A stretch of DNA of 64,000 nucleotides from a virus. The notes under the pieces are model-generated. The model had not been told where the DNA came from. It did no database searches and saw only the letters and a program-made list of their open reading frames with translations. A program made the translations under genes and the position numbers. The first letter of the stretch is position 1. The number at the start of each line of letters is the position of its first letter. Where the stretch lies: positions 40,059 to 104,058 of IMG/VR virus record IMGVR_UViG_3300020122_000089; one strand, given 5' to 3'. Positions 19,853 to 58,105 of the stretch are shown here, one piece after another.

Positions 19853-20578
19853 CTATCGCTTCACAGCCTTAAAGCCGCCGGGCCCTTCTGGCGGACCTTC
19901 AAATGTTAAGACGTGCGTTTTATCTAAAAGCCAATATAGTTCGGTTTGTGTTTTACCATTGCAGGGGTGCCATTCGCCTACGATTATTGGAACCTCTACT
20001 GCCGACGTGTCTTCTAATGCTGACCACTCGCAACCTTCGCAGTCCATTTTTAGAAAGCCGATCTCGCCATACGACCTAACGATTTCAGAAATAGAAATGC
20101 AAGGAACTTCTTCTTCTTCAAATGCTACGCCGGTAGCGCCGGCGCCGGTGACTAAAGAGGCGTTGCCAATAAACGCATGGTGGTTAGCGTTTTCTGAGCC
20201 TTGATATCGCCAGCGGATTTTTGTAGAATCAACATCAGGGCCTGCAACGCCTACTGGAAGTACCATTACTTGCTGCGTTAGATTGTTTTCTTGAATGTTC
20301 AATCTTAGTAAGGTGACATTTTCGGGGACTGGTTCTATACATAGCACTATAAGGTCTGGATTATCCATCGCCATTGCAATGCCAACAGAGCCAATGTGCG
20401 ATCCTATATCCACCGCTAACCCTGATTGCGGGGCGTTTTCTTTTAAGTGATATTCATCTGCCGCCATTGAGGATTGAATTGTATTCCAATCGTTTGTTTC
20501 GAGACGGTAGTGCATGTGCGCGATGTTGCCATGCGGGGTTATAAAATCCTGTATTGCTTGTTCGTAGTGAATTCGCAT
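19853..20578 (-). CDS. FkbM-family SAM-dependent methyltransferase
   Basis: VDIGSHIG, IEP, LKMDCEGCE motifs. Confidence 0.85.
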   Translation of the reverse strand: MRIHYEQAIQDFITPHGNIAHMHYRLETNDWNTIQSSMAADEYHLKENAPQSGLAVDIGSHIGSVGIAMAMDNPDLIVLCIEPVPENVTLLRLNIQENNLTQQVMVLPVGVAGPDVDSTKIRWRYQGSENANHHAFIGNASLVTGAGATGVAFEEEEVPCISISEIVRSYGEIGFLKMDCEGCEWSALEDTSAVEVPIIVGEWHPCNGKTQTELYWLLDKTHVLTFEGPPEGPGGFKAVKR

Positions 20579-21795
20579 CAGATTACCGCTGCTCCGCTTA
20601 TTTCAGTTGAATCTACTTCTAAGAATGGCTCGGCGTGAAATTCTCTCGCGCTGTTAATATCCACTTCCACTTCTTCTAGGAACGGACGCCAGTATTTATC
20701 TCTCACTACCTGCCAAGAGAGTTCTTGTTTTACAGTTTCAGCAGCTTGCAGTCCTTGTTCTGCGTATAAATCTTGATTGAGATAAATCTCTTTAATTGCT
20801 CGCGTAATTGCCGGTATAGAGGGAATTGCTTGCCAGCAGGCATTCATATTCCAGAATCTTTGTACGCTTGGTACTTTAATTCCAGCAAAAAGGTATTCTG
20901 GGCTTGCAGAGAAATCATGAACGATAACGGGCGTTCCGCATGCCTGTGCCTCCGCTTGGCAAAGGCCAAATCCTTCGCCATATGACGCCCCTAGTAAAAC
21001 ATCGGCGGCACTGTACATCATCGCCATGCGGTCATCGGATAATCCCATCGCTATGTCGTAGTCTGGCGTGTTGCAGGTGCAATCACCTAACCCGAGATTG
21101 CGGACTAAATCGTTTAAGTCAAGGCCGCCATCATTTGTAGTGGGGGTTAATGCGGTATGTAATAGCAAATCTGAATCGGGATATTCTTTGTGGAATGCGG
21201 CAAATGCTGCCATTTGTTCTGGAAATGCTTTCCTTGAAGGATAGTAGAAGTTTGCTGCCGCTATCAAGCAAATGAATTTATCCTCGCGAATTCCTAATTC
21301 CTTACGGGCCGCTTTTTTGTCTCTGGGGTAATAAATATCTGTATTAATCGCATGTGGAATGTAGATGCTAGGGATGCCAGACTTCCGCATTTCGCGTTTA
21401 CCAAATTGCGACATTGCTACAACATGTTTCGCTTCTTTCAGTATCCTTACCAATCGAGGAGGTGTCGGTATTGAATCTACCGGACTATAAGTGATCCAAG
21501 GAACACTGAACAGTCTTGGGAAGTCGCGGCTAAGCGTCCAAACATCGTGGAACGAGATTAAGCAGTCGGCCCTAGTAACCTTTACGTGCTCGCCAACTAT
21601 ATCATGACCCCAACTATCACGAAATGTTGGGAGGTATTCAACATCGTCAATCCTAGCCGGGCCGCCTTTATACCCCCAATGCGGCATGAAAAATACCTCA
21701 TGCCCTAAATCCTTAAAGGCACGGATAAGGAAGCGGGACTGAGTGCCGTATCCAGAGTTCACAAAATGGGCCACGGAGGACAAAAGGATTCGCAT
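20578..21795 (-). CDS. glycosyltransferase family 4
   Basis: SGYG N-terminal motif; GEGFGLCQAEAQACGTPVI. Confidence 0.9.
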   Translation of the reverse strand: MRILLSSVAHFVNSGYGTQSRFLIRAFKDLGHEVFFMPHWGYKGGPARIDDVEYLPTFRDSWGHDIVGEHVKVTRADCLISFHDVWTLSRDFPRLFSVPWITYSPVDSIPTPPRLVRILKEAKHVVAMSQFGKREMRKSGIPSIYIPHAINTDIYYPRDKKAARKELGIREDKFICLIAAANFYYPSRKAFPEQMAAFAAFHKEYPDSDLLLHTALTPTTNDGGLDLNDLVRNLGLGDCTCNTPDYDIAMGLSDDRMAMMYSAADVLLGASYGEGFGLCQAEAQACGTPVIVHDFSASPEYLFAGIKVPSVQRFWNMNACWQAIPSIPAITRAIKEIYLNQDLYAEQGLQAAETVKQELSWQVVRDKYWRPFLEEVEVDINSAREFHAEPFLEVDSTEISGAAVI

Positions 21796-22614: not shown

Positions 22615-23475
22615 TTATTCTTCCGGAAGAAACATATCCAACAACGAGTGTTTGGGTTTTATCAGCGACACTGGATGAATAGCGATAGGTGGTATATCCA
22701 TCTGCTCAATATCACAATCTGAATGGTTGCCATTACCGGAGGATAAATCAAGCACTTCTTGATTCATTCTATTGGCGGCGATTTCACAATAGCGCTCTTC
22801 GATTTCGATGCCAATGGCATGGAATCCCAAATTCTTAGCAGCTCGAAGAGTAGTACCGGATCCAAGGAACGGATCAAGGACAATACCGTCAGGCGGCATG
22901 GAAAGTGATAGCAGATGGGTAAATAAAGATAAAGGCTTTTGAGTTGGGTGGTCTAACTTGCCGGGCTGGCCATGGCGGTAACTATCAGCCTTAAAATAAT
23001 TTGGGCACGTCCCGGGACGTAAATTATTCCAGGATTTACCGGTTTTATACGCAAACACGCAAAGCTCCACACCAGAATCAAATCCAGCATGCGGTGCTGC
23101 TGGGACTGGTACGGCCTTAACCAGGACAAATGGCCTGGTCTTCCAACCTTCCCCTTCTAGCGTTGAGACAATGTCACCGAATTGTCGATGTCCGCACCAA
23201 GCGTAAATTGTATTGCTACATAAACGTGAGGCTAGTAAGATCGACCCAACTGCGCGGGCGGTACTGGCGCCCCAGTCGCTATCGTCGTTGAAAAAATCAA
23301 GTGAACGTTTCCCTTTACCCGGTTGGCGCACATGGGTGGCGCTGTTACCTAGACTAATCGAGTAAGGCGGGTCGGTTAATACTAGATCGACGGGTTCTAG
23401 CCGTGGGAGGATTTCCCTACAATCGCCGTGGTAGATTGTAATTCCACCATGTTCATAGTAGGGCGTCAACGGCAT
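22615..23475 (-). CDS. N6-adenine/N4-cytosine DNA methyltransferase (beta class)
   Basis: TDPPY, HPTQKP, DPFLGSGTT. Leaderless ATG 23475 after TTGCAA, 17 bp, TATACT. Confidence 0.9.
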   Translation of the reverse strand: MPLTPYYEHGGITIYHGDCREILPRLEPVDLVLTDPPYSISLGNSATHVRQPGKGKRSLDFFNDDSDWGASTARAVGSILLASRLCSNTIYAWCGHRQFGDIVSTLEGEGWKTRPFVLVKAVPVPAAPHAGFDSGVELCVFAYKTGKSWNNLRPGTCPNYFKADSYRHGQPGKLDHPTQKPLSLFTHLLSLSMPPDGIVLDPFLGSGTTLRAAKNLGFHAIGIEIEERYCEIAANRMNQEVLDLSSGNGNHSDCDIEQMDIPPIAIHPVSLIKPKHSLLDMFLPEE

Positions 23476-23585
23476 GATAAGAAGTATAACACAAATCAAA
23501 AACATTTGCAAGTGTTATTTTTGCGGCCGACCGCCCCTTCCTCCGTTTCTTCCGGAAGAAGGGGCAAATCGGGTTAGTTCGGTGA

Positions 23586-23888: not shown

Positions 23889-26800
23889 TTACGCGAATGC
23901 TACGGCCGGTCCTGGCAGGTTTGTAATGTCGGAATTACTAATGAGCCAGTGGCAGCCGAAGCGGGTAGCCCCGCCTTGTGTTAGCTTATGGTTCGATTTT
24001 CCATAAGAGCAGACTATCGCATCGCCTATTTTAGGCGCCTCTTCGTTTAGTCGTTCACGCTGATTATCTTGCGCCCTGTTTGGGTTCTCACCATTCAAGT
24101 CTATTAGAAGAGGTTTTCGCATATCATTATCTCTAACAATATGGCCCCATCGGTGGAGGTCGTACTTACAGCCAAGGAACCCTATCCACTGATCGTAATA
24201 AGTCCCCCCGCTGGTGTACTGCCTGACCTGAAGCGTATCACGCGCATACGCCCCGAACTTCATTCATCTGTAATCTCCGGTTTTCACCGGAGTGTCGGAC
24301 TATATTATCGGCTGTAAACATTACAGTCGCCGGGCGCTCTAGCTGGTAAATTAAAGGGACTAAACCCTTCCAGTAGTCTCTACACCTTCCGAGGGTGTAC
24401 CCTCGACTTGGCTCGGTATTACCATACTATTTATTTCGTTTAGGCTTCACCGAATTCACCCGGTTAATTTCCCCTAGCATCACTGCTAGGTGAGCCAATT
24501 GTTAGTTTAGCTCGTACACATTGATTTCCGCCGGATTCACACCGTACGTCCTGTCCGGGTCAATCGCGACATGGGTTTCCCAGGTAATGCCTTCTCCAAA
24601 TTTCACGTCAGTGAACGTTTTGTTACTTCCCTTTCGGGAGGGTATATCATTTCTGTATACCTCTGTATGTTTCCATACAGCCCAGACTATCTCATATTCT
24701 CACTTGACAATGGCGCCTGTTTCATGTTATAATGTTTGGCATTATGCCACAAAAATTCGGACGCTTAACTGTTCTGGGTAGGTCTTACAACAATCCATCT
24801 AAATTTCAATTCGCCAGATGGACCTGTTTATGCGATTGCGGAAACATCGTAGAGCCACTTGCAATTCATGTGCGATCTGGAAACACCCAATCCTGCGGAT
24901 GCTTGCAGCGCGAAGCTGCGAGCAGACAGGGTAAGGCGAATGCTACGCATGGACTGTCGGGTACGCCTGAGGCCTACATCTACTATGCAATGCTTCAAAG
25001 GTGTTTTAACCCGGAGCATCCTAGCTATCAAAACTATGGCGGCCGTGGTATTACGGTATGTGAAAGATGGATTGGTGCTGAAGGATTGGCCAACTTTCTC
25101 GCCGATCTCGGGCCGCGCCCTAGTTCTGATTTGACACTCGAACGCAAGAATAACGATGGAAACTACGATCCCGATAATTGTAAATGGGATACACGCGATA
25201 ATCAGAATCGCAATTATCGTCGCAACCGATTTCTTACCTTTAATGAAAAGACGCAGTGTATCGCCGATTGGGCCAGCGAAACAGGTCTCTCTCATGATAC
25301 AATTAGCTATCGGTTGGCTCATGGATGGTCCGTCGAAAAGACTCTAACTACACCTACCAAAAACAGTCTCAAGTAAGAACCGGGGCGTTATTAGGCTCTT
25401 ATTGGATTGACTCCTCAAGCCTTAGTCGTTGCACCTGCCCGCCTACTTTTACGTCATTCGGCGAGATTGGCTCAGGATTTCCATGTCTCAAATTAACGAG
25501 ATTTAGGATTCCCTGAATTAACCCCGTTTGCTTACAGATGTTACCACCTGTAGGGACTTCTTTACAGAAATCCATTCTTAGCGATCCACCGCCCCCGTCA
25601 AAACGTTGCAAATTATATCCGTTCGTTGCTGTTATCCGGCCTACGCCGAAACTGGTCATTTCTGCCAGTTTCTTGCGGTTATTTTTCCCGCAAGACCAGA
25701 ACATTGCATCATCCTTATAGGATGTCGCCTCATTTGTTCGTTCACGCTGATTTCTTCCGGAAGAAACCTTGCGCCTCGTTGGCATTTCAGCCTCCGGGTC
25801 GATTACAGGCGATTTGCATCCCCGTATCACTACAGGACGGTCCAGGATTCCAGACATGTAGGCAGCTTTTTGGGTCGGGGAGGAAAGGATCAAAGTGTTA
25901 CCTGGGTTGTCGGTCCGATACCTGAGGCTAAAGTGCACCTCTACGAGCAATGCTACCTGCAATCTCTGTTGAGATGCATTTAGAACAATGCTCTTTAGGT
26001 ATGGACGGTTGGATCTGAGTTGACCTTGGATTTCCCCCTTATGTGTTAGCTTACGATTTTTCTTTTCGTAAGAACAGACTATCGCATCATCCTGACGTGC
26101 ATACAGGACGCCTTCTCGTTTAGTCGTTCACGGTAGATTCTTCCGGAAGAATTATCCTTCCGCCCTATCAGCATTGCAGCTTTTAAGTCGATCAGAGAAG
26201 GTTTTCTATTCATCGTCACCGATGAATGCACCCGAGATTGAGTGTCATTGTTTACAAGATCGGTCACAATCTGTTACCTCTTCCTTGTGGAAGCGGGCGA
26301 GTCGTTTCCGCTCACCTCTGCATGTTACCATGCAGTTCAGACTATATCTTTCTGAGTTTTCTTGATAAGCATTCTTAGCGCCTCCGTATCCGGAAAACCC
26401 TTCTTGATTAGGTAATGAATCGCCGCCGCTTTTACGTTCAATGTTTCAGCCCAAGCGGTGATACATTGCGTAACGTCATCGAGTGTTATCATGTGATTAC
26501 GCCGCGTATTACGCATCTGCTCTTTCTTGGTTGCCCACTTCACATTCCCTGGTTCGTAATTGCCGTTGTTGTCAATGCGCTCAAGAGAATGTTCTGGTGA
26601 TGGCCTTTCACCTACATCGGCGATCCAGTTTTCAAAGCCGTGCTCGCCAATCCACCTATCGGCAACCTTTATGCCACGTCCACCGTAATTTGGATAAGAA
26701 ATCCCCGATTTTCTACGGCAGCGTGTAAGCATGGCGCAGTACAATTCATACTCCACCGTATGCGAACGTCCATGCGTTCGGTTACCTGCCGCGGCGGCTT

Positions 26801-29594
26801 CCCGCTGTTTCTGTCCTTTATTGCGCTCTATTAATTCCTCTGTGCGTAAACAGCCGCAAGATTTAGTGACGCGATCATAGAGGCGCCTGGGCCGTGCAAG
26901 GATTTCGTTACCGCAATCACACTTACAAACATATCGAGTACGTACGTACCGTCCGATGGCAACCTGAACCCTCCGTATGACTGTCAGGCGGCCTACCCTG
27001 GGCGGAATTGGAAGCGCTGGATACATGCTTACTCAAACCTCAGACCGGGCATTGGCACGGGGTTATTAGTTTAGCCTCTTCACCCGTTAGTCGTTGAACG
27101 TTCCTGCCTACTGCTAAGCTATTCGGCAGGCTTCGCTGCTGATTGTCCTTTGAAAGGAGTTCCCAGCAATTAACCCGGTTTATCCTGGGCTGTTGATTCA
27201 ACCCATGTGGAGCCTTTAGCGCCGACCCCTCATAAGTGAGGTAATCATTCGCCGTAGTCCCCGTTGGCACTGTGTCGCACGTGATGACGCTCGTTGAGCG
27301 GTTGTTACCACCTGGGTCAACAACCACTCCGGTTGTAGGAGCGCCACGCGCTACGTTTGTAGTACCGTTTACGAAGTGAATACGTGCTCCGTCTTTTACT
27401 TTGAAGGAGCCGAACGTGCCGCCGTCTGCTACGGTTACGGCGCAGGTTACTGTACCGTTAGCACCTGTAGTAGCACTCTTGACTACCGCTATTGCACCGT
27501 TCTTAGAACCTGCAATTTGGAAGTCCAAAGTCTTCTTGGAGGCTTCGGTTTGGAGGAGGTAGAGGTCGCTGATTTTGTCAATCAGTGCATCGCCTCCGAT
27601 GTTGTCGAACACGTCCCCCGAAATAAGGAACGCGGTTGCGTATCTTGCTGGAAAAATCCGCATGTCATTACGGTCCTCCAACGGTTCAATTTCCGTTGGC
27701 CCGGGCCATCGCATCGTCTTGAACAGACGCCTCTCCGTTTGGTCTCTCACGCTACTAGATTCTTCCGGAAGAATTAGTTTGCGCCCCGTTCCCGTTTCAG
27801 GGTCCGAGTCTATTAGGGGTGGTTTACATAATCCACGTCGCCGTAGATTGAGTCCAATGTTTGAACTGCGGATTATCGGCAACTGGCATTGCTCCGCCTT
27901 CAGTGAAGTCGGTCTTGTTACTAGCTCTTTTTGTAAAGAGCCGGACGGGTCATTTCTGCCCATCTCTGCATTTTTCAATGCAGCCCGGACTATATCATAA
28001 ACTTTACCTTGATTTTCCTCAAGAAATGTGCTATAATGACGCACATGTATAAAGCGAAAAGCCTTGTCGGCCAAAGATTCGGACGTCTCATCGTTGTTGC
28101 GTTCTCGCATAGAAACGACAAGAAGAGGTCGAACCATTGGCTCTGTCAATGTGATTGTGGTGGGACGGCTACGCCATCCTCTTACGCCTTGAATTCTGGT
28201 CATACCCAATCCTGCGGATGTTATCACGCAGATTGCGCACGTGCTCAAGGTCATAAAAGTCGCAAACATGGAATGTCTAGGACGGCTGAATACTACGCTT
28301 GGAATTCCATGAAGGGTCGCGTTCTTTTTTCTCATCATCCTGGATATCCGGATTATGGCGGTCGAGGTATCACTATCTGCGACCGCTGGCTTGATCCGGA
28401 GCATGGGTTTGAGAATTTTTTGGAGGATATGGGGCCACGGCCTCATGATCAACTCTCTGTAGAACGCATGAATAACCACGGTAATTACGAGCCAGGAAAT
28501 TGCAAGTGGGGAACGGATACTGAACAGGCTCGAAATAAGCGCAGTAATCATCCTCTGACTTTTAACAACAAAACCCAGCCTATGTCCGCCTGGGCGGAGG
28601 AAACTGGATTGCCATATCACATTATCAGCCATCGTATTCGTGCTGGCTGGAGTGTCGAACGGGCGCTGACTGAACCTATCAATCAATCGTATTCCCGTCG
28701 AAAAAGGTAAAGCCCTGGGGCGCTGTTTGGCGTTACTAAGATTAGCTCTTTCGGCCATAGTCTCTGGACCTTCCTACCTACTTTTATGCTATTCGGTAGG
28801 CTTGGCTGCTGATTACCATATCTCGCGGTTGAGATTTAGGCTTCCAGCAATTCACCCCATTCATGTTAGATGTCACCATCTAACAGCCCATTGTGCATAG
28901 GAGTCGGATGCCGGCGGGCGGTCGTAGAAAGGAATTCTGTAACCCCGTTGATTGACCTGTATGGCCTTCCCTTTATGGAAGCGGTTGTACAATTTTTGTT
29001 GCGTTCCTTAGAACGGATGGATATTTTCATTCCACCTCTTACGGTTCAGATTTCCGCAAGATCGGACTGTTGCATAACCTAACAAATCAGGCCCCTCTTC
29101 GCTCAGTCTCTCACGGTAAAGATTTTTCTCTTTTTCCGCCTCGTTACCATGTTGCAGGTTTCGAGTCAATAAGAAGAGGTTTTCATCTATCGTTTTCACG
29201 GTAAATGCCCCGTATTTTGATGCCCAGGGTTTGGCTCTCTTCGAACTGTTTTTCAATCTCGGGATTGACAGCAGTCCTCACTACGGCTTCAAATTGGCTA
29301 AAAACAAGCTCCCGGTTTCTGGCGATTTTTCTTTTTCGCCAGCCCAGACTGTCGCATCACCCTTTTGGGCGCCTTCTCGCTCAGTCGTTTACGCCGCTCG
29401 GATTCATACCGCTCGTATAACGTTGGTCTCGTTAATTCGGATTCAACAATCCGTCCTAACTGTTTCCAAAGTTTATCTGCCAATACTTCATCCTGCTTGC
29501 GCATTGTTCCCGTTTCAGGATTCAACTCAATCAGAGAAGGTTGTTTTCCAAAGGAGGCTGTATCGCTACAGGGCTGGCCGAGCTTTTCAGCCAT
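23889..29594 (-). CDS. major capsid protein, 421 aa, in 11 exons: 29594-29589, 29311-29225, 28989-28899, 27909-27864, 27670-27201, 26266-26241, 26037-25852, 25623-25570, 24615-24509, 24264-24157, 23973-23889
   Basis: Exons sum to 1266 nt and give one open frame: MAELVFSQFEAVVRTAVNPEIEKQFEESQTLYNRF...SYFTEGGAMP...APHGLTDLVNNDTGEIQGQLRS...KYDLGATRFGCH...AVAFA*. Shine-Dalgarno AAGGGGG before the ATG; position downstream of scaffold; motifs typical of HK97-fold capsids. Confidence 0.85.
23974..24156 (-). mobile_element. group I intron 10 (183 nt, no endonuclease ORF)
   Basis: P3 CCUCUUC/GAAGAGG; P7 GACUA/UAGUC; P9.0 CU/AG then G; short P1; junction gives Y-D-L-G-A-T. Confidence 0.8.
24265..24508 (-). 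mobile_element. group I intron 9 (244 nt, IA-like, ORF-less)
   Basis: P1 GAGCU/GGCUC; P4 UUCGGU/ACCGAG; P7 AGAGACUA/UAUAGUCC; ends GAUG. Confidence 0.9.
24616..25569 (-). mobile_element. group I intron 8 (954 nt, IA-like) with antisense HNH gene in P8
   Basis: P1 GGAUUUCU-GUAA-AGAAGUCC; P7 AACGACUA/AUAGUCU; ends AAACG; junction gives M-D-F-T-D-V. Confidence 0.9.
24744..25376 (+). CDS. intron-encoded HNH endonuclease (antisense to intron 8)
   Basis: GRLTV..CLCDCG..SCGC..YGGRGI..LERKNNDGNYDPDNCKW. Promoter TTGACA 24704, 18 bp, TATAAT 24728. Confidence 0.9.
   Translation: MPQKFGRLTVLGRSYNNPSKFQFARWTCLCDCGNIVEPLAIHVRSGNTQSCGCLQREAASRQGKANATHGLSGTPEAYIYYAMLQRCFNPEHPSYQNYGGRGITVCERWIGAEGLANFLADLGPRPSSDLTLERKNNDGNYDPDNCKWDTRDNQNRNYRRNRFLTFNEKTQCIADWASETGLSHDTISYRLAHGWSVEKTLTTPTKNSLK
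25624..25851 (-). mobile_element. group I intron 7 (228 nt, no endonuclease ORF)
   Basis: P1 GUCU/GGAC; P3 UCGCCU/AGGCGA; P7 covariant GAACA/UGUUC; ends AACG. Confidence 0.85.
26038..26240 (-). mobile_element. group I intron 6 (203 nt, ORF-less)
   Basis: P1 CACU/GGUG; P3 CCUUCUC/GAGAAGG; P7 GACUA/UAGUC; P9.0 UU/AA then G. Confidence 0.85.
26267..27200 (-). mobile_element. group I intron 5 (934 nt, IA-like) with sense HNH gene in P8
   Basis: P1 UGGGUUG/CAGCCCA; P7 AACGACUA/AUAUAGUCU; ends AUUG; junction gives H-G-L-T-D-L. Confidence 0.9.
26337..27026 (-). CDS. intron-encoded HNH endonuclease (intron 5)
   Basis: GRLTV..CKCDCG..SCGC..YGGRGI..LERIDNNGNYEPGNVKW; ORF ends at the P7 3' strand. 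Confidence 0.9.
   Translation of the reverse strand: MYPALPIPPRVGRLTVIRRVQVAIGRYVRTRYVCKCDCGNEILARPRRLYDRVTKSCGCLRTEELIERNKGQKQREAAAAGNRTHGRSHTVEYELYCAMLTRCRRKSGISYPNYGGRGIKVADRWIGEHGFENWIADVGERPSPEHSLERIDNNGNYEPGNVKWATKKEQMRNTRRNHMITLDDVTQCITAWAETLNVKAAAIHYLIKKGFPDTEALRMLIKKTQKDIV
27671..27863 (-). mobile_element. group I intron 4 (193 nt, ORF-less)
   Basis: P1 AGUUCAA/UUGGACU with U.G; P10 CAUUG/UAAUG; P7 GAGACCA/UGGCCC (one mismatch); ends ACCG. Confidence 0.8.
27910..28898 (-). mobile_element. group I intron 3 (989 nt, IA-like) with antisense HNH gene in P8
   Basis: P1 CCUAU/AUGGG; P4 UUGCUG/CAGCAG; P7 AGAGACUA/UAUAGUCC; ends ACCG; junction gives S-Y-F-T-E-G-G. Confidence 0.9.
28045..28710 (+). 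CDS. intron-encoded HNH endonuclease (antisense to intron 3)
   Basis: GRLIV..CQCDCG..SCGC..YGGRGI..ERMNNHGNYEPGNCKW. Leaderless ATG 7 nt after TATAAT 28032. Confidence 0.9.
   Translation: MYKAKSLVGQRFGRLIVVAFSHRNDKKRSNHWLCQCDCGGTATPSSYALNSGHTQSCGCYHADCARAQGHKSRKHGMSRTAEYYAWNSMKGRVLFSHHPGYPDYGGRGITICDRWLDPEHGFENFLEDMGPRPHDQLSVERMNNHGNYEPGNCKWGTDTEQARNKRSNHPLTFNNKTQPMSAWAEETGLPYHIISHRIRAGWSVERALTEPINQSYSRRKR
28990..29224 (-). mobile_element. group I intron 2 (235 nt, ORF-less), junction non-canonical by 1 nt
   Basis: P1 CCCUG/CGGGG; P3 CCUCUUC/GAAGAGG; P7 GAGACUG/CAGUCC; removal restores T-L-Y-N-R-F. Confidence 0.8.
29312..29588 (-). mobile_element. group I intron 1 (277 nt, no endonuclease ORF) after MCP codon 2
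   Basis: P1 UGGCU/GGCCA with U.G; P10 AAGCUC/GAGCUU; P3 CCUUCUC/GAGAAGG; P7 GACUG/CAGUC; terminal G. Confidence 0.85.
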
Positions 29595-29688
29595 ACCGTA
29601 ATCCCCCTTTCTTTCCTAATCCTTGCCTACGCTTTTCTTCCGGAAGAACCGGAATACTCGGCGCGTTACTCATGCTCTTGATTACGGT

Positions 29689-30812: not shown

Positions 30813-32312
30813 CTAACCCGGAAGCCCTAACCCTGCTTGCTTCAATCTTGCCCTTACGGCGGCGCGAGTGCCTTCGATGTCGCCGGGCTGCGTTTGTGCT
30901 GGTTTTGGTGCACCGGAAGGAGGGTTCGACCCGCCAGGAATCTCTACCCTCTTTCTTGTGTTATCGGATTTTTGTTTTGCTTCACGCGCCTTAGCTACGA
31001 TTGGGCCAAATAGTTCTTTCGCCTCTTCAGCCATTGCGTTTGCGCGAAGGGTAGAGATGACCGCCATAGCGTCAAGTCCCCGCTGTTCATACTTTTGGCG
31101 GTTCTCAATAGTCGAAGCCGTTGCGGCTTGCTTGAGCCATTTCTTTGCGGTGGCCTTCGCGGTCTGAAAGTTTGGGTCGCTTGCCAATCTTTCTTTCGTC
31201 AGCGTCTTGAGGCGATCAGCGAGCCCGGGTCTGTCTTTTGGAACCGAAGATTGATACGTTTCTTTCAAGTCTTTGTCTAACGCATCTGCAAGGTATTGCT
31301 CGACCCTTGATTCGGCACGGCGCTCTGCTTCTTCTGCGGATTGCCCTTGAATTTTTTCTTGCCCGCCACGGAGATTTTCAATCTCTTTTCTAAGTGCTTC
31401 TGTTTCACGGCGGCGCGTGTCAAGCTCTTGCTGGATGCGGGACTGTTGAAGAAGGGCCCGTTGCTGTTCATCTCTGATGCCATCAATAGTGCGAACATGT
31501 ACAGGGTCGCTGAGATCAAGTTGAAGCCTTTGGGCGATTTGCTGTGGCGTTTCTACACCCTGCGGCCCTTGCTGCGGCGGTTGCTGATTGAGTGGCATAG
31601 CACTCGTTCCGCCATTTATGCGCGAGTAGATCGCTTGCATGATGTCGGGACTTTTCGCAACTACGTTGATGATGTTGTACATCGTCTCGCCATCGGTACC
31701 CGCAACCCGTTTGGACATGAAATCCCAAACTTGATTTAGTTGCTCGAACTGAAAGCGCCCTTCGTCGGTATTAAGATCAAGGGGTTGACCTTCTAACGCT
31801 TTTATCCTGCCTGCAATCTCGGGCCAGAATTGCGCCTCCATGACCGTGTCAACCAAAGCGTCGTGATATTCTGGCTCTTCGGTGGCCATCTTCGCCAACC
31901 CCTCGGCGGGCTTGAAATCCTCAAACGGAACGTCGGTTGAAAGATAGACACCACGACCCTGAGAGGATCGGGTAGTCTCTAGCTCCTGCTTGAAAGCATC
32001 ACGTTCGCGTACGGCTTCGTCGCGTTCGTATTTGCGCTTTTCATACGCAGAGCGAAACTCTGTTAATCCTTCAGATTTTGAAAGATCGAGCTTAGAGATT
32101 TCTTCGTCGGATAAAGGTTGTCCGGATTGGCGCTGCCCTTCATCTGTTGCGGGCGGTGTTTCTTGCTGACCGTCTGTTCCTGCCGCCACTGAAGCGGATG
32201 GCGCACTGCGATCCGCTTGTGGTGGTGGCTGATTACCCGACGCCGGCGGCGGACTGCTTTCACCACCCCCTAAGCCAAGATCGATTTCAGATTCTACAAA
32301 TGATCCGTCCAT
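30813..32312 (-). CDS. putative capsid scaffolding protein
   Basis: Acidic disordered N-terminus, long coiled coils, Pro-rich linker and C-terminal helix; upstream of MCP; GGAGGGG Shine-Dalgarno. Confidence 0.65.
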   Translation of the reverse strand: MDGSFVESEIDLGLGGGESSPPPASGNQPPPQADRSAPSASVAAGTDGQQETPPATDEGQRQSGQPLSDEEISKLDLSKSEGLTEFRSAYEKRKYERDEAVRERDAFKQELETTRSSQGRGVYLSTDVPFEDFKPAEGLAKMATEEPEYHDALVDTVMEAQFWPEIAGRIKALEGQPLDLNTDEGRFQFEQLNQVWDFMSKRVAGTDGETMYNIINVVAKSPDIMQAIYSRINGGTSAMPLNQQPPQQGPQGVETPQQIAQRLQLDLSDPVHVRTIDGIRDEQQRALLQQSRIQQELDTRRRETEALRKEIENLRGGQEKIQGQSAEEAERRAESRVEQYLADALDKDLKETYQSSVPKDRPGLADRLKTLTKERLASDPNFQTAKATAKKWLKQAATASTIENRQKYEQRGLDAMAVISTLRANAMAEEAKELFGPIVAKAREAKQKSDNTRKRVEIPGGSNPPSGAPKPAQTQPGDIEGTRAAVRARLKQAGLGLPG

Positions 32313-42283: not shown

Positions 42284-44773
42284 TTACTTCGCGGGAACAA
42301 TCGACATTGGCTTAGGCTGTGTCAGTGTCTGAATATCGCGGTGAAACTGCTCCGTTTCGGCCTGTTGCATCTTTATGGTCTTTAGTTCTCTTAGTTCTTG
42401 GACCTCACGGCGGAGCTGTTCAATCTCCATTTGCTGATCTTGAATCGCACGGATCAACAGCGCTGGCATTTTGATATAATCAACGCTGTGCAGTTCGCCT
42501 CTTCGGTCTCGGATCGCAAGCCGCTCGTCAACCCGTGCCACTTCTTCTGCGATCAATCCAACCTGTCTTGACCCGCCTGTTTTGTAGTTGAACGCGACGG
42601 GCCGCAGTCTCATCACTTCATCAAGACCGTTTGTTAAAGGCTCGATGTGATCTTTGAATTTTAAGGCCGAGACGATACATGCTGCGTTGTCGTTGACTAG
42701 CTCGCCATTCGAGGCGACGCACATATAGGTAGTTCCTGAGCCAGAAGTAGAAAGGCCATCCATCCATACTCTCTTACGGATCGCTGCCCCACCTGCAACT
42801 TGTAGGGCTCCGGTTGTTGTGGACGTGGAGTCAGTTGTACTAGTTACAATAATGTTATTAAGTTTTAGATCGCCAGCAAAGCTACCTTGGGAACCTGTGC
42901 CGATTCCAACCAGGCCCGCAGAGATTCGCCCGATTCCAGTATCTTGACCTCCAGCAGCCTCCCAACTATTAGTATTCGCCCACACAAGTGACATATTTTG
43001 TGCAAGTCCAAACCGATTTCCTCCTGTATATATTTCAAAGACTGACCCCGTTCCCTCTACATAAAAGTCAAATACAGTTCCCGTCCGACGATACCAGCCC
43101 TGAGTCTCTCCGGCGAACTTGAATCCTTCTACTGCCCCATTAGCTATAACAAGCTGTCCGGCGATAGAAAGGTTTCCACTTGAATCTAGTGTGGTAGTAG
43201 CAGATGGGGTTTGTAGAGTTGTTGTGCCGCCGCCTGTCACAAGAGCAGTCGAAGTTAAACTACCCGCGCCAACAACCGTAACTGTTCCGCTTCCACCTCC
43301 CGCTGCTGCCCACTTCACCCCATTTGTACTTGCTGCATCTGCGGTCAACACTTGACCATCACTACCCACCGCAAGTTTATTCAGGCTTGCTCCACCCGGA
43401 GCGGTCAGCAAGTCACCTTTCGTATAGGCGGTCTGACCTGTCCCGCCGACCGCCACTGTAACTGTATTCAACGCCGCTGCAAGAATCTTTCCCGCTGCAT
43501 CGGTGTGGGTAGTAGGGCCAGAGCCGACTTTCAATACTCCCGCAACAAGTAGATTAGTTGCTCCGGCATCAGATGTAGAGCCTATACTCACGCCACCGCT
43601 ATCGTTTATCCTCGCCGCTTCCGTCCCTCCATTGTTCCCGACCGTGAATTTGATGAGGTCGGTTGTGCCAACACCGGAGGTCGAGCGAATCTCAGCCGAA
43701 GCCCCAACTGCTGTGCCGCCTATGACCGATGGGGTGGTGACAGAACTTGGGGTAATCGCTCCAAGGGTGACGGTCAGGGATGGGGTTGCGCCTCCGCTTG
43801 AAATGCCACTGACTCCATTTGCTGTAGTGATTCCGATAGTCTTAACAAACGTGCTTGAAAGTGAGCCGTCAGCAATTCCACTTACAGTCAACACCCCCGC
43901 ACTTGACAGCGAGAACGTCGCACCTGATCCGCTCAAGCCCACTGGCGCGTAGGCTGTTCCTCCGGCATTACCAGCAAGGATTTGGCCGGCCGATGGCGCG
44001 GTGTTGGGAACGATGCTGGCTTTCGTTTGAGCGTCGTTAGTGACTGCGCTCAACCCGACATCGGTCTTCGAGGGTGTCGAGTAAACGAACACGCCCGCTC
44101 CATCGTTGTGCAACCAACCAGCGCCGTTCGCCAGTGCTGCGATAGTCGTGAGGTTTGTGTTAAGTGGCTGTGCATCTGTGATTCCATACCCACTCAGTGT
44201 CGTTGGCTTGCTCGCGATATTTGCGAAGATGTAACCGGTGCCCGCTGCAAGGTTGCCCGATGCAATCGTGCCGAGGATTGGCGCTGTGAACGTCTGTTGT
44301 CCACCCCATGAATGCGCCGTCGAAAACACATCCGCGTTGAGCATTGCAGAGGTAACTTTAGTCGCGCCTATGGCGGTGGTTTTTCCGCCTGACGTACTAA
44401 CATCGCCGGTTAAATCGCCTACGGCGGTTGCTTGACTGCCGGCGCCGAAAACAAGCTGGTTTAACGTAAGGGACGCCGCGGAGGTGACGCAGGTAGCGCA
44501 GGCAATGGTTCCTGTAGTTGTAATTACACCGCCGGTTATTGGAGAGGTGGTTGAAATGCTGGTTACAGTTCCCGACCCACCGCCACCTGCCACGGTGACC
44601 ACACCACCTGTAATGGTGAGTGATCCGTCTGCGAATACAAGATTGGTGGCGTTTGTTCTTCCAACCCCTGTAGTTGCTTCGCGTATTGTCAGCGGTGGAT
44701 GGCTTTGCGCCTTTACCGTCCTACTACAAGCTATTGTAAGCATGAAGGCGAGAATGAAAAGGATTTTTTTCAT
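42284..44773 (-). CDS. tail fibre/spike-like protein with C-terminal intramolecular chaperone (peptidase S74-type) and N-terminal signal peptide
   Basis: Gly/Thr-rich fibre repeats (SGTVTS, KPTTLSGYGITDA); C-terminal SALKFKDHI...LRPVAFNYK...GLIAEEV...VDY...LIRAIQ. Confidence 0.8.
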   Translation of the reverse strand: MKKILFILAFMLTIACSRTVKAQSHPPLTIREATTGVGRTNATNLVFADGSLTITGGVVTVAGGGGSGTVTSISTTSPITGGVITTTGTIACATCVTSAASLTLNQLVFGAGSQATAVGDLTGDVSTSGGKTTAIGATKVTSAMLNADVFSTAHSWGGQQTFTAPILGTIASGNLAAGTGYIFANIASKPTTLSGYGITDAQPLNTNLTTIAALANGAGWLHNDGAGVFVYSTPSKTDVGLSAVTNDAQTKASIVPNTAPSAGQILAGNAGGTAYAPVGLSGSGATFSLSSAGVLTVSGIADGSLSSTFVKTIGITTANGVSGISSGGATPSLTVTLGAITPSSVTTPSVIGGTAVGASAEIRSTSGVGTTDLIKFTVGNNGGTEAARINDSGGVSIGSTSDAGATNLLVAGVLKVGSGPTTHTDAAGKILAAALNTVTVAVGGTGQTAYTKGDLLTAPGGASLNKLAVGSDGQVLTADAASTNGVKWAAAGGGSGTVTVVGAGSLTSTALVTGGGTTTLQTPSATTTLDSSGNLSIAGQLVIANGAVEGFKFAGETQGWYRRTGTVFDFYVEGTGSVFEIYTGGNRFGLAQNMSLVWANTNSWEAAGGQDTGIGRISAGLVGIGTGSQGSFAGDLKLNNIIVTSTTDSTSTTTGALQVAGGAAIRKRVWMDGLSTSGSGTTYMCVASNGELVNDNAACIVSALKFKDHIEPLTNGLDEVMRLRPVAFNYKTGGSRQVGLIAEEVARVDERLAIRDRRGELHSVDYIKMPALLIRAIQDQQMEIEQLRREVQELRELKTIKMQQAETEQFHRDIQTLTQPKPMSIVPAK

Positions 44774-56156: not shown

Positions 56157-56528
56157 TCAATAAAGCCTCCGCTGTGGAAATGGCATCGCCATCGCTGGAT
56201 AGTCATCTTGTTGATGCTGTAATGGAACAAATGGCGCATTGACGTCCACCTGGCCGCCTCGCAACTGACCTGACGATCCCGGTCCCTGCCCGGTAAAATC
56301 ATACGCAAGGCCACCACCCATATCTAGTGGTAGCGCGTATGGCGCGGGTTGGTAGTTTGCCTTCGCCATCGCCTTCATTAACGCCATCTTGACGTAATCG
56401 TTATGCAGCGCGGGGTTTTGCTGTACTGTCGATTGCGCTGGTATCGTACCGGTACGCGGGGTTCCGTGGCGCGCCTGATCCGCGAGGATCATATATCTCC
56501 GCTCTATTTCATTACGGGGTGTGCTCAT
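56157..56528 (-). CDS. hypothetical protein
   Basis: ATGA overlap with the TerL stop. Confidence 0.6.
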   Translation of the reverse strand: MSTPRNEIERRYMILADQARHGTPRTGTIPAQSTVQQNPALHNDYVKMALMKAMAKANYQPAPYALPLDMGGGLAYDFTGQGPGSSGQLRGGQVDVNAPFVPLQHQQDDYPAMAMPFPQRRLY

Positions 56529-58105
56529 TTCATCCCTAGCTTCTTCATAAAATCTCCCTTGCCTTTCTTTGCTTCGCGGGCTTCATCTAGGAATTCTCGC
56601 ATCCAAAAGGCGGAGCTTACCTCCGCCATTGGGTGTGGATTGAAAGGCAAATTCTCGGGTTTTAGTGATTCGTCCAATCTCATCGTTGCTTTAGCGCGTT
56701 CGTCGTAATCAAGGCCCGTCATGTACTTTCTTGCACGGGCCCAACCTTCAGAAAGTGCGGAGATGATGTCATCATGGGCACCGGTTTGTGCGCCATAACG
56801 AATACGGCCGGAAGCAAGACGTTCCATCCCGTAAGATTCAAGCTCGGAGAGTAGCGTCGCATCGTTGGGGATAGAAATTTCCTTCCGTTCAAATGCTAAT
56901 ACAAGAGCCTGTACGGCTTCTTCTTTTGTTGCGTTCGTTACTGTAAAGCCTCGAACAGGAAGACCTTCTTCGCGCCCTTGACGCCCACGCCCTGACTTTG
57001 CGCGGTATTTCATCATCGAGAGGGCATCGGCAAGGGCGAGATTTCCTTGCTCCTCAGATACTATCTCTGCCGGTTGAAATGCTTCGCATAATGCAATAAG
57101 TCGAGCAATCTGTAATGTGTATTCTATTTGATTGAAACGGTCGATCTTGACTACTGATTTAGTTGAAGCGTCAATAACTACGAATACTGAGAAATCTTGT
57201 AGCTTTGCCCAGTCACAGCCTATTACGTAAACGTGGTAGGGCTCTGCCGATTCACGTTCGATACCTTGCTTGATACACGCATGTACGTTGCGGAATACAG
57301 CACCGCCATCCTCCAGAAATTCTGCGAGATATTCTTGTCGGAAAACATCTTCGGGGTACTCTTTTCTTGCTCTCTCAATTTCACTTGCCTTGATATAGGG
57401 ATTTGCTGAGGTTGGGAATTTCCAACTCATCCAATCGGTTTCTGCCGGGTCTTGCCCTTTGAGCCATAGTTTGTAGAATCCGCCCTTACCTGAAGGGGTG
57501 GAGGTAAACCACGCATCGCCTTCTAGGTCTATTAACGTAGGGGCGATGGCAAAGTTAAACGCCGCCTCTAGGTTTGGTATTAGCGCAGCTTCGTCTATTG
57601 CAACCCGTTTGTATTTACGACTACGGCCGGCCTTGTATTTGCCGGCGCTACCAGTCTCGCTGTCGAGCGACCACGCTTCAATGATTCCGCCTGTACTCAA
57701 TTCAATCCTGTGCTCTGAATCATTGGCACGTACTATCAGCGGTTCGGCGGCAGCCTTAATATCACGCCAGCCTTCGAGAAGAAACTTATAGGTGGGCGCA
57801 AAGTAACCTACAGGATATCCAGCCTCGGCCATCTCAACAAGTAGATTACTGTCGAGCTTTGTTTTACCGATACGACGACCGGCCGAGATTACGTTGAACC
57901 TTCTTGATTCAGCTACAATCTGCGCTTGTGCAGGGTGAAGAGCGAGCCTATGCGTCTTTGGCGCTTTAGCAGCAGCCTCTTGAGCCTCTAATGCCCGCCA
58001 CCGCTCCATATACGGAGCTAATAGTTCGTAAGGAGATGGTCTTTGATTTGCAGGCTGACTCATGCTGATTGTTGCTAGAAGTAATATGGCGGATAGGATT
58101 GGCAT
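56525..58105 (-). CDS. terL: terminase large subunit (start may be the later Met, MSQPAN)
   Basis: LHPAQ, Walker A SAGRRIGKT, Walker B VAIDEAA, STPSG, FRQEYLAEF, nuclease IGCDWAK..D and HDD. Confidence 0.95.
   Translation of the reverse strand: MPILSAILLLATISMSQPANQRPSPYELLAPYMERWRALEAQEAAAKAPKTHRLALHPAQAQIVAESRRFNVISAGRRIGKTKLDSNLLVEMAEAGYPVGYFAPTYKFLLEGWRDIKAAAEPLIVRANDSEHRIELSTGGIIEAWSLDSETGSAGKYKAGRSRKYKRVAIDEAALIPNLEAAFNFAIAPTLIDLEGDAWFTSTPSGKGGFYKLWLKGQDPAETDWMSWKFPTSANPYIKASEIERARKEYPEDVFRQEYLAEFLEDGGAVFRNVHACIKQGIERESAEPYHVYVIGCDWAKLQDFSVFVVIDASTKSVVKIDRFNQIEYTLQIARLIALCEAFQPAEIVSEEQGNLALADALSMMKYRAKSGRGRQGREEGLPVRGFTVTNATKEEAVQALVLAFERKEISIPNDATLLSELESYGMERLASGRIRYGAQTGAHDDIISALSEGWARARKYMTGLDYDERAKATMRLDESLKPENLPFNPHPMAEVSSAFWMREFLDEAREAKKGKGDFMKKLGMK

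Follow-up and report, generated by a model that had tools for sequence, protein, structure and literature searches.

The 64,000-nucleotide (nt) window analyzed here comprises the final 64 kb of a 104,058-bp virus record in the IMG/VR database (IMGVR_UViG_3300020122_000089), a single contig that has direct terminal repeats and is rated 100% complete. On its minus strand, from position 29594 to position 23889, eleven exons of 6-470 nt join into a 1266-nt frame for a protein of 421 amino acids (aa), and the ten inserts that separate them make up 4440 of the 5706 nt of the locus (77.8%). A sequence-only reading of the window had proposed that this is a major capsid gene in 11 exons, 78% of it intron, interrupted by ten group I introns, and the inserts delimited in the present analysis agree exactly with the ten lengths that it listed (Table 1). 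Very probably, the locus is a single major capsid gene of the HK97 fold that has been invaded by ten mobile group I introns belonging to two structural families. The evidence consists of the anatomy of the sequence, homology to intron-less genes, covariation in the RNA and the presence or absence of the introns among relatives of the phage.

Exon 5, the longest open stretch (147 aa), was used as the database query, and it retrieved four full-length proteins of 415-420 aa together with a number of read-through open reading frames (ORFs) of odd lengths, P0002, P0003 and P0005 among them. The database entry for the window gene itself is a 572-aa read-through ORF (P0001), which bears out the earlier expectation that gene callers miss this capsid gene. 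When the intron-less homologues P0010 and P0012 were compared with the window by tblastn, they matched it in colinear blocks on the minus strand. Exon 1 (6 nt) and exon 6 (25-26 nt) gave no clean blocks because they are too short, and their boundaries were taken from the intron lengths of the sequence-only reading together with a check of the frame. The joined 421-aa frame aligns end to end with the intron-less homologues (415-420 aa), being 73-76% identical to the products of the intron-less genes of two relatives (L001 and L003) and 73% identical to P0010.

The fold was modeled on P0010 in place of the joined window protein. From an alignment of 68 sequences that had been gathered by a profile search of 1.8 billion proteins, AlphaFold2 produced a model with a predicted local distance difference test (pLDDT) score of 87.9 and a predicted template modeling (pTM) score of 0.83, and the best solved matches of this model in Foldseek (probability 1.00) are the capsids of the cyanophages Mic1 and A-1(L) and of phages SU10 and HK97. 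Several mycobacteriophage capsids also belong to these best matches, and the top matches are all phage capsids or encapsulins, so that P0010 is predicted to be an HK97-fold capsid protein, as had been anticipated for the gene in the window. The profile of the capsid family also matches the capsid chains 7f38 (E = 2e-9) and 6j3q (E = 2e-6) in the PDB and the PHROG entry "major head protein"; a match to capsid_maj_Podo in NCBIfam lies below the cut-off, and Pfam gave no match for exon 5. No further copy of the capsid gene is present in the genome. Searches of GenBank phages with the whole locus (megablast), exon 5 (tblastn) and intron 10 (blastn) gave no match, and the scanned genome contigs of GTDB contain no relative of the phage and hence point to no host. 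Upstream of exon 1, which consists of the codons ATGGCT, lies the Shine-Dalgarno-like sequence AAGGGGGA, and this context is kept in another relative, L002, where GATTACGG is followed by one base, a T and then the ATG.

Table 1. Exons, introns and intron-borne ORFs of the interrupted capsid gene (window positions; strand given as + or -).
Feature	Position	Strand	Description
Exon 1	29589..29594	-	6 nt; ATGGCT = Met-Ala
Intron 1	29312..29588	-	277 nt; compact family; P1 UGGCU/GGCCA, P10 GAGCUU/AAGCUC
Exon 2	29225..29311	-	87 nt
Intron 2	28990..29224	-	235 nt; compact family; irregular junction
Exon 3	28899..28989	-	91 nt
Intron 3	27910..28898	-	989 nt; Rfam-positive (91.3 bits); antisense endonuclease gene in P8 loop
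Antisense endonuclease ORF, intron 3	28045..28710	+	phrog_374, E 3e-65; program ORF start TTG 28009
Exon 4	27864..27909	-	46 nt
Intron 4	27671..27863	-	193 nt; compact family; P1 AGUU/GACU, P10 UAAUG/CAUUG; palindrome in P6, 27761-27772
Exon 5	27201..27670	-	470 nt
Intron 5	26267..27200	-	934 nt; Rfam-positive (66.1 bits)
Sense-strand endonuclease ORF, intron 5	26337-27026	-	phrog_374, E 6e-54
Exon 6	26241..26266	-	26 nt
Intron 6	26038..26240	-	203 nt; compact family; weak Rfam match (16.8 bits); palindrome in P6, 26139-26150
Exon 7	25852..26037	-	186 nt
Intron 7	25624..25851	-	228 nt; compact family; palindrome in P6, 25753-25764
Exon 8	25570..25623	-	54 nt
Intron 8	24616..25569	-	954 nt; Rfam-positive (74.2 bits); antisense endonuclease gene in P8 loop
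Antisense endonuclease ORF, intron 8	24744..25376	+	phrog_374, E 2.6e-61; program ORF start ATG 24732, inside -10 box
Exon 9	24509..24615	-	107 nt
Intron 9	24265..24508	-	244 nt; Rfam-positive (67.0 bits); no ORF; guide GGCUC
Exon 10	24157..24264	-	108 nt
Intron 10	23974..24156	-	183 nt; compact family
Exon 11	23889..23973	-	85 nt, including TAA stop

A group I core was found in each of the ten introns, by the Rfam model RF00028 in four of them and by a structure set by hand in the other six. The matches of RF00028 that lie above the gathering score are at 27966-28911 (intron 3), 24663-25579 (intron 8), 24275-24518 (intron 9) and 26318-27248 (intron 5), and a fifth, weak match lies at 26057-26209 in intron 6 (scores in Table 1). 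The search with this model that had been suggested as a check on the introns therefore succeeds for four of them and falls short for the remaining six (introns 1, 2, 4, 6, 7 and 10; 183-277 nt). The latter can be aligned with each other and constitute a compact family that the single model of Rfam misses, save for its weak match to intron 6. Outside the capsid gene, RF00028 has no match across the whole genome.

RNAalifold recovers helices P2, P3, P4, P5, P6, P8 and P9 from the six compact introns, with compensatory changes in 31 of 40 pairs. For the core topology set by hand (P3/P4/P5/P6/P7/P8/P9, with P7 as a pseudoknot with P3), 94.9% of the cells are paired versus 32-41% when the partners are slid, compensatory changes are found in 27 of 39 pairs with the P7 pseudoknot included, and the observed level of covariation was reached by none of 500 shuffles. 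The J6/7-P7 and J8/7-P7 strings (GACUA and AUAGUC) agree with the Rfam consensus, and the core is a miniature but complete one of the group I type, with four pairs in P4, a P5 hairpin of three pairs and a short P6. R1, a covariance model trained on the compact P3-P9 core of the six introns of the window, finds four copies beyond its training set in the capsid gene of L002 and one in that of L005, and it has no match elsewhere in the window genome or in L001 and L003, which lack introns. After inclusion of the five independent copies, 96.5% of the cells are paired and 33 of 34 pairs are compensated, in an alignment that was fitted to R1 and so leans towards the structure. The genome-wide results with RF00028 and R1 uphold the claim that intron cores are confined to the capsid gene, and the TerL gene (56525-58105, minus strand) is one uninterrupted ORF of 526 aa.

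Homology to the intron-less genes places each splice junction to within 0-3 bases, and the final boundaries were set by the rules for group I introns within the freedom so left, the protein being unchanged by the choice. With the boundaries set in this manner every one of the ten introns has a terminal G, and a U closes the upstream exon in nine of the ten cases, the same proportion as in the sequence-only reading, which had flagged the same irregular junction, that of intron 2. The exon U of each of the nine canonical introns pairs as a U.G wobble with a guide G located 9-13 nt into the intron, in a P1 helix that has 3-5 exon pairs when flanking bases are included. P10 pairings of 3-6 bp lie adjacent to P1 in introns 1, 4, 8 and 9 and nearly adjacent in introns 5, 6 and 10, with the clearest adjacent example in intron 1, the P1 of which contains the UG of the start codon. 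From these pairings the guide of each intron is seen to be written for its own site. Most introns of the window and all eight of those in L002 also have in common a tail made up of UAACA, or a near variant of it, a few bases and the final G.

The Rfam alignment of intron 5 puts P1 on a hairpin of exon 5 (27201-27248), 48 nt upstream of the true 5' site; the latter is fixed by homology, and boundaries drawn from the covariance model alone would mis-annotate exon 5. Early in-frame stop codons follow no pattern from intron to intron, and introns 1, 7 and 10 are open in frame over their whole length. If the RNA is left unspliced, translation from the capsid start would follow a 98-aa frame (29298-29594, minus strand) that crosses the whole of intron 1 with no stop, and ribosomes on such RNA would unfold the ribozymes of the three read-through introns. 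Inteins and ribosomal bypass were considered for the inserts and rejected, since the inserts have ribozyme cores and introduce both stop codons and changes of frame.

The occupancy of the capsid gene by introns differs widely among the relatives of the phage. The complete sister genome (L001/G001; 104,444 bp), which is in the same size class as the window phage, has an uninterrupted capsid gene and no match to RF00028 or R1 anywhere. The capsid gene on the 29-kb contig L002 has eight introns, four of each family, at sites that correspond to positions of about 26, 74, 224, 294, 729, 919, 1073 and 1131 in the coding coordinates of the window gene. Only site 1073 is common to the two genes, being that of intron 9 in the window, with the same guide, GGCUC; three other sites of L002 lie 3-7 nt away from window sites. 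L005 has an intron after codon 17, and the window, L002 and L005 together account for about 18 different sites in a gene of 1.27 kb. A pattern of presence and absence of this kind fits the "intron sink" that had been suggested for the gene.

Three of the compact introns, namely intron 4 of the window (27863) and two in L002 (at about 5871 and 6157), are inserted at the motif CAGUU|C and have the guide GACU, a coincidence of motif and guide that would fit spread by reverse splicing. By sequence, the three resemble one another no more than they resemble other members of the compact family, in which introns that share a target motif do not group by sequence (pairwise identities of 47-73%). An intact and unoccupied CAGUU|C motif is retained in the window at coding position 74.

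The compact introns are not restricted to close relatives of the window phage. A search of IMG/VR contigs for the P7 and J8/7 pattern matched at least 119 stretches, and R1 gave 122 hits, often several per locus, in the first 80 of these (L008-L126 set). The loci resemble the window genome in their intron cores only (about 70-75% identity), and ten flanking frames that were sampled included two for portal proteins, two for major head proteins of another capsid family, three for endonucleases and three with no match. Judged by its predicted cores, the compact family occurs widely among unrelated phages from the environment and interrupts portal genes and the major head genes of another family, often at several places in one gene.

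A number of points weigh against the reading of the locus as one capsid gene with ten mobile introns. The removal of the ten introns from RNA is something that we infer from the anatomy of the gene, and the HK97 fold of the window protein is predicted by way of P0010, a homologue with 73% identity. The P1 helices of introns 3 and 10 have just three pairs with the exon. In the family alignment, conservation at the insertion sites does not exceed that at sites drawn at random (p = 0.21), which lends no support to the usual pattern of a "conserved homing site". The upstream exon of intron 2 ends in CCCUG, with the last G opposite a C and the U.G wobble at position -2, and canonical cuts at both ends of this intron would remove one base and shift the frame. 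Finally, the locus comes from a metagenome assembly, and the linkage of the ten introns on one molecule rests on the assembled contig.

The irregularity of intron 2 might mean that at least one of the introns, this one first of all, is unable to splice alone, in which case either the gene would be broken or the intron would splice with the aid of a protein cofactor or of another ribozyme, or at a non-canonical site. The guide of intron 2 (5'-UAC followed by GGGG) predicts the correct product, CCCU-GUA (in-frame CCCUGUAC), which could arise only if the cut followed a G-C pair or if the last base of the intron were U and not G; the other nine introns of the window and seven further introns of L002 read as canonical. 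The core of intron 2 is nevertheless intact, scoring 134.5 bits on R1, albeit as one of the six training sequences; the genome, which is complete and has terminal repeats, offers no other capsid gene; and an assembly error of one base would also account for the anomaly. We consider a splicing failure of this kind distinctly unlikely, and the anomaly itself might be an exception that is real, a defect, or an error of one base in the assembly. Another 3' site considered for intron 2 would lengthen the protein by five residues; as it cuts through a hairpin and gives up the P10 pairing, it was rejected.

The origin of the contig invites a second doubt, namely that the count of ten introns is inflated because the assembler threaded a path through alleles that have different subsets of them. 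The strong variation in intron presence among relatives lends itself to this explanation, and several exons (6, 26, 46 and 54 nt) fall below the length of a typical short read, such that the linkage between neighboring introns rests on few reads. Against this, the record consists of one 104-kb contig, which has direct terminal repeats and a completeness of 100%, and eight consecutive introns lie on the independent contig L002; we hold a composite of alleles to be very improbable.

Three introns of the window (3, 5 and 8) carry paralogous ORFs in the loop of P8. These are 38-49% identical to one another, and all three match phrog_374, "HNH endonuclease", with E-values of 6e-54 to 3e-65; they have no match in Pfam, NCBIfam or the PDB, and the name "HNH" is therefore that of PHROGs alone. 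The ORFs of introns 3 and 8 lie on the strand opposite to the intron, as does the homologous ORF in L002. Upstream of the antisense ORF of intron 8 is a sigma-70-like site (24704-24733) that matches the consensus at 12 of 12 positions, has the TG of an extended -10 element and has its -35 box within the stem region of P8. The antisense ORF of intron 3 is preceded by a sigma-70-like site at 28009-28037 (TTGATT-17-TATAAT) that matches at 10 of 12 positions and likewise has the TG. The ATG at 28045 comes 7 nt past the -10 box and that at 24744 comes 10 nt past it, which suggests that both antisense genes might give rise to near-leaderless mRNAs, running counter to the capsid transcript. Across the region as a whole, promoter-like sites are no more numerous than chance would give, and the antisense promoters are therefore a lead rather than a demonstration.

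The palindrome TCTTCCGGAAGA occurs 29 times in the window, where 0 occurrences are expected. It forms the P6 hairpin of introns 4, 6 and 7 (positions in Table 1), occurs again just upstream of the capsid start (29636-29647) and has 25 further sites in the window; it is absent from all 124 of the loci fetched from other genomes. L002 has a variant of the palindrome, TCTTCCAGAAGA, seven times in 16 kb (listed sites 5794, 6692, 7852 and 10537), and this variant is likewise found in the P6 of two compact introns of L002 and upstream of the capsid gene of that contig. From the placement of the two sequences it follows that the introns carry the genome-wide motif of their own host phage.

Of the genes around the capsid locus, those at 20578-21795 and 22615-23511 (both minus strand) encode a glycosyltransferase (PHROG) and an N6/N4 DNA methylase (Pfam), and a protein of 829 aa encoded at 42284-44773 (minus strand) has an endosialidase-chaperone domain (Peptidase_S74), presumably of the kind that is carried by tail fibers. 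Upstream of the capsid gene, an ORF of 499 aa (30813-32312) offers a weak lead to a scaffold family, and the slot after a scaffold gene that the sequence-only reading had assigned to the capsid gene is thus a putative one. The Pfam scan that included exon 5 and the endonuclease ORFs otherwise gave no match for the neighboring genes.

We infer splicing, the route of homing and any effect on the timing of capsid synthesis from the features described above, and the following scheme is conditional throughout. A primary (late) transcript of 5.7 kb would fold into ten ribozymes, the guide of each of which would pair with the upstream exon (P1, with the U.G wobble) and the downstream exon (P10). Each intron would cut itself out with a guanosine cofactor, ending at the terminal G, and the capsid frame would become readable only after all ten had left. 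The three endonuclease genes could drive homing of their introns into intron-less alleles during co-infection. The seven introns that lack an ORF each lie within 6-470 exon bases of a neighbor, and they might be carried along by co-conversion or might enter new sites by reverse splicing at short motifs that match their guides.

The intron load of the capsid gene might be selfish or might be kept because it is useful. On the latter explanation the anatomy of the locus would be the same, the endonucleases would cut the intron-less capsid genes of competitors, and splicing would gate the synthesis of the capsid protein. The UG of the start codon is part of the P1 of intron 1, and translation might wait for splicing; this overlap is also the sole hint that splicing could act as the timing device which the sequence-only reading had put forward. 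The strong sigma-70-like promoters of two of the endonuclease genes would make possible their expression independently of the capsid gene, and an intron-encoded endonuclease of phage PhiPA3 is reported to interfere with a co-infecting phage (PMC11620839). Set against this are the complete sister phage of the same size, which has no introns and argues that they are dispensable, the differences in intron sites between close relatives, as would be expected of selfish turnover, and the lack of an endonuclease gene in seven of the ten introns; the usefulness itself is a prediction from the DNA. We regard a useful load as unlikely, and selfish accumulation as most likely and as a better reading of the load than a timing device.

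Taking the features of the locus together, one might imagine the capsid gene as a long-lived nursery of introns, where compact introns reverse-splice at guide motifs such as CAGUU|C and hitch-hike with antisense, self-promoted and leaderless endonuclease genes, where P6 has been domesticated to the palindrome of the host phage, and where the splicing of intron 1 unmasks the start codon so that capsid translation is gated by the folding of a ribozyme. As a whole we think this combination quite unlikely.

If the capsid gene is a single gene invaded by ten mobile introns, as we believe, then the most abundant protein of the virion would depend on ten ribozymes that act within a single transcript, some exons of which measure only 6 and 26 nt. 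The gene would be a simple system for asking how tandem group I introns avoid the skipping of exons and how introns that lack endonuclease genes spread, and for asking further how one gene can be a reservoir of introns while the rest of its genome and a sister genome stay clean. Since gene callers and Rfam miss such genes, the capsid genes of environmental phages are probably under-annotated.

Group I introns in the structural genes of phages are already known. The gene orf142 of the Staphylococcus phage Twort has three of them, and their splicing has been demonstrated (Landthaler and Shub 1999, PMC22036, as cited in PMC11878797). The gene orf142 is like the window gene in having several group I introns with no ORF in one late structural gene, where tandem ribozymes raise the problem of exon skipping; it differs in having three introns rather than ten, whereas the window gene has exons of as few as 6 and 26 nt, has three introns with endonuclease genes and is known from its sequence alone. 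Introns also occur in the capsid and tail genes of cultured Cluster J mycobacteriophages, where splicing has been shown, and are far fewer there than the ten of the window gene (PMC3706429). A closer parallel in the type of gene is provided by the crAss-like phages of the Zeta group, in which the capsid gene of cMAG OLRF01000054 is in five fragments and a genome can have up to 14 introns (Yutin et al. 2021, PMC7886860). In both cases group I introns break up the capsid gene of a metagenomic phage, and the gene eludes gene callers. In the crAss-like phages the introns are distributed over many genes, whereas those of the window phage are ten in one gene with none elsewhere, and the gut habitat and the capsid family of the crAss-like phages differ from those of the window phage.

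In the mitochondrial cox1 gene of Agaricus bisporus, the introns mostly carry LAGLIDADG genes. This gene is the closest analogue in intron load (PMC2987802), since there too one conserved gene has become a reservoir of many group I introns whose presence or absence differs between relatives; cox1 is a gene of a eukaryotic organelle, however, whereas the window gene is a late gene of a phage, with compact introns that lack ORFs and with genes that PHROGs names "HNH". Small group I introns are common in uncultured phages (PMC12880540, PMC11878797). The Jug jumbo phages have on average 18.5 small introns (~206 nt) per genome, with two or three fragments per gene, and their splicing has been validated by metatranscriptome reads (PMC12880540). 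The genes of the Bastillevirinae have at most three introns, which occur only in DNA-metabolism and terminase genes (PMC11878797). Unlike the window gene, these phages have one to three introns per gene, mostly in terL, nrdD and DNA polymerase genes, and a 2025 study asks why phage introns stay in the genes of DNA metabolism. Our limited search of the literature found no published report of ten introns in one phage gene, with published phage genes reaching three or four, and the capsid gene in the window is in this respect an extreme case of the intron-split phage genes that are already known.

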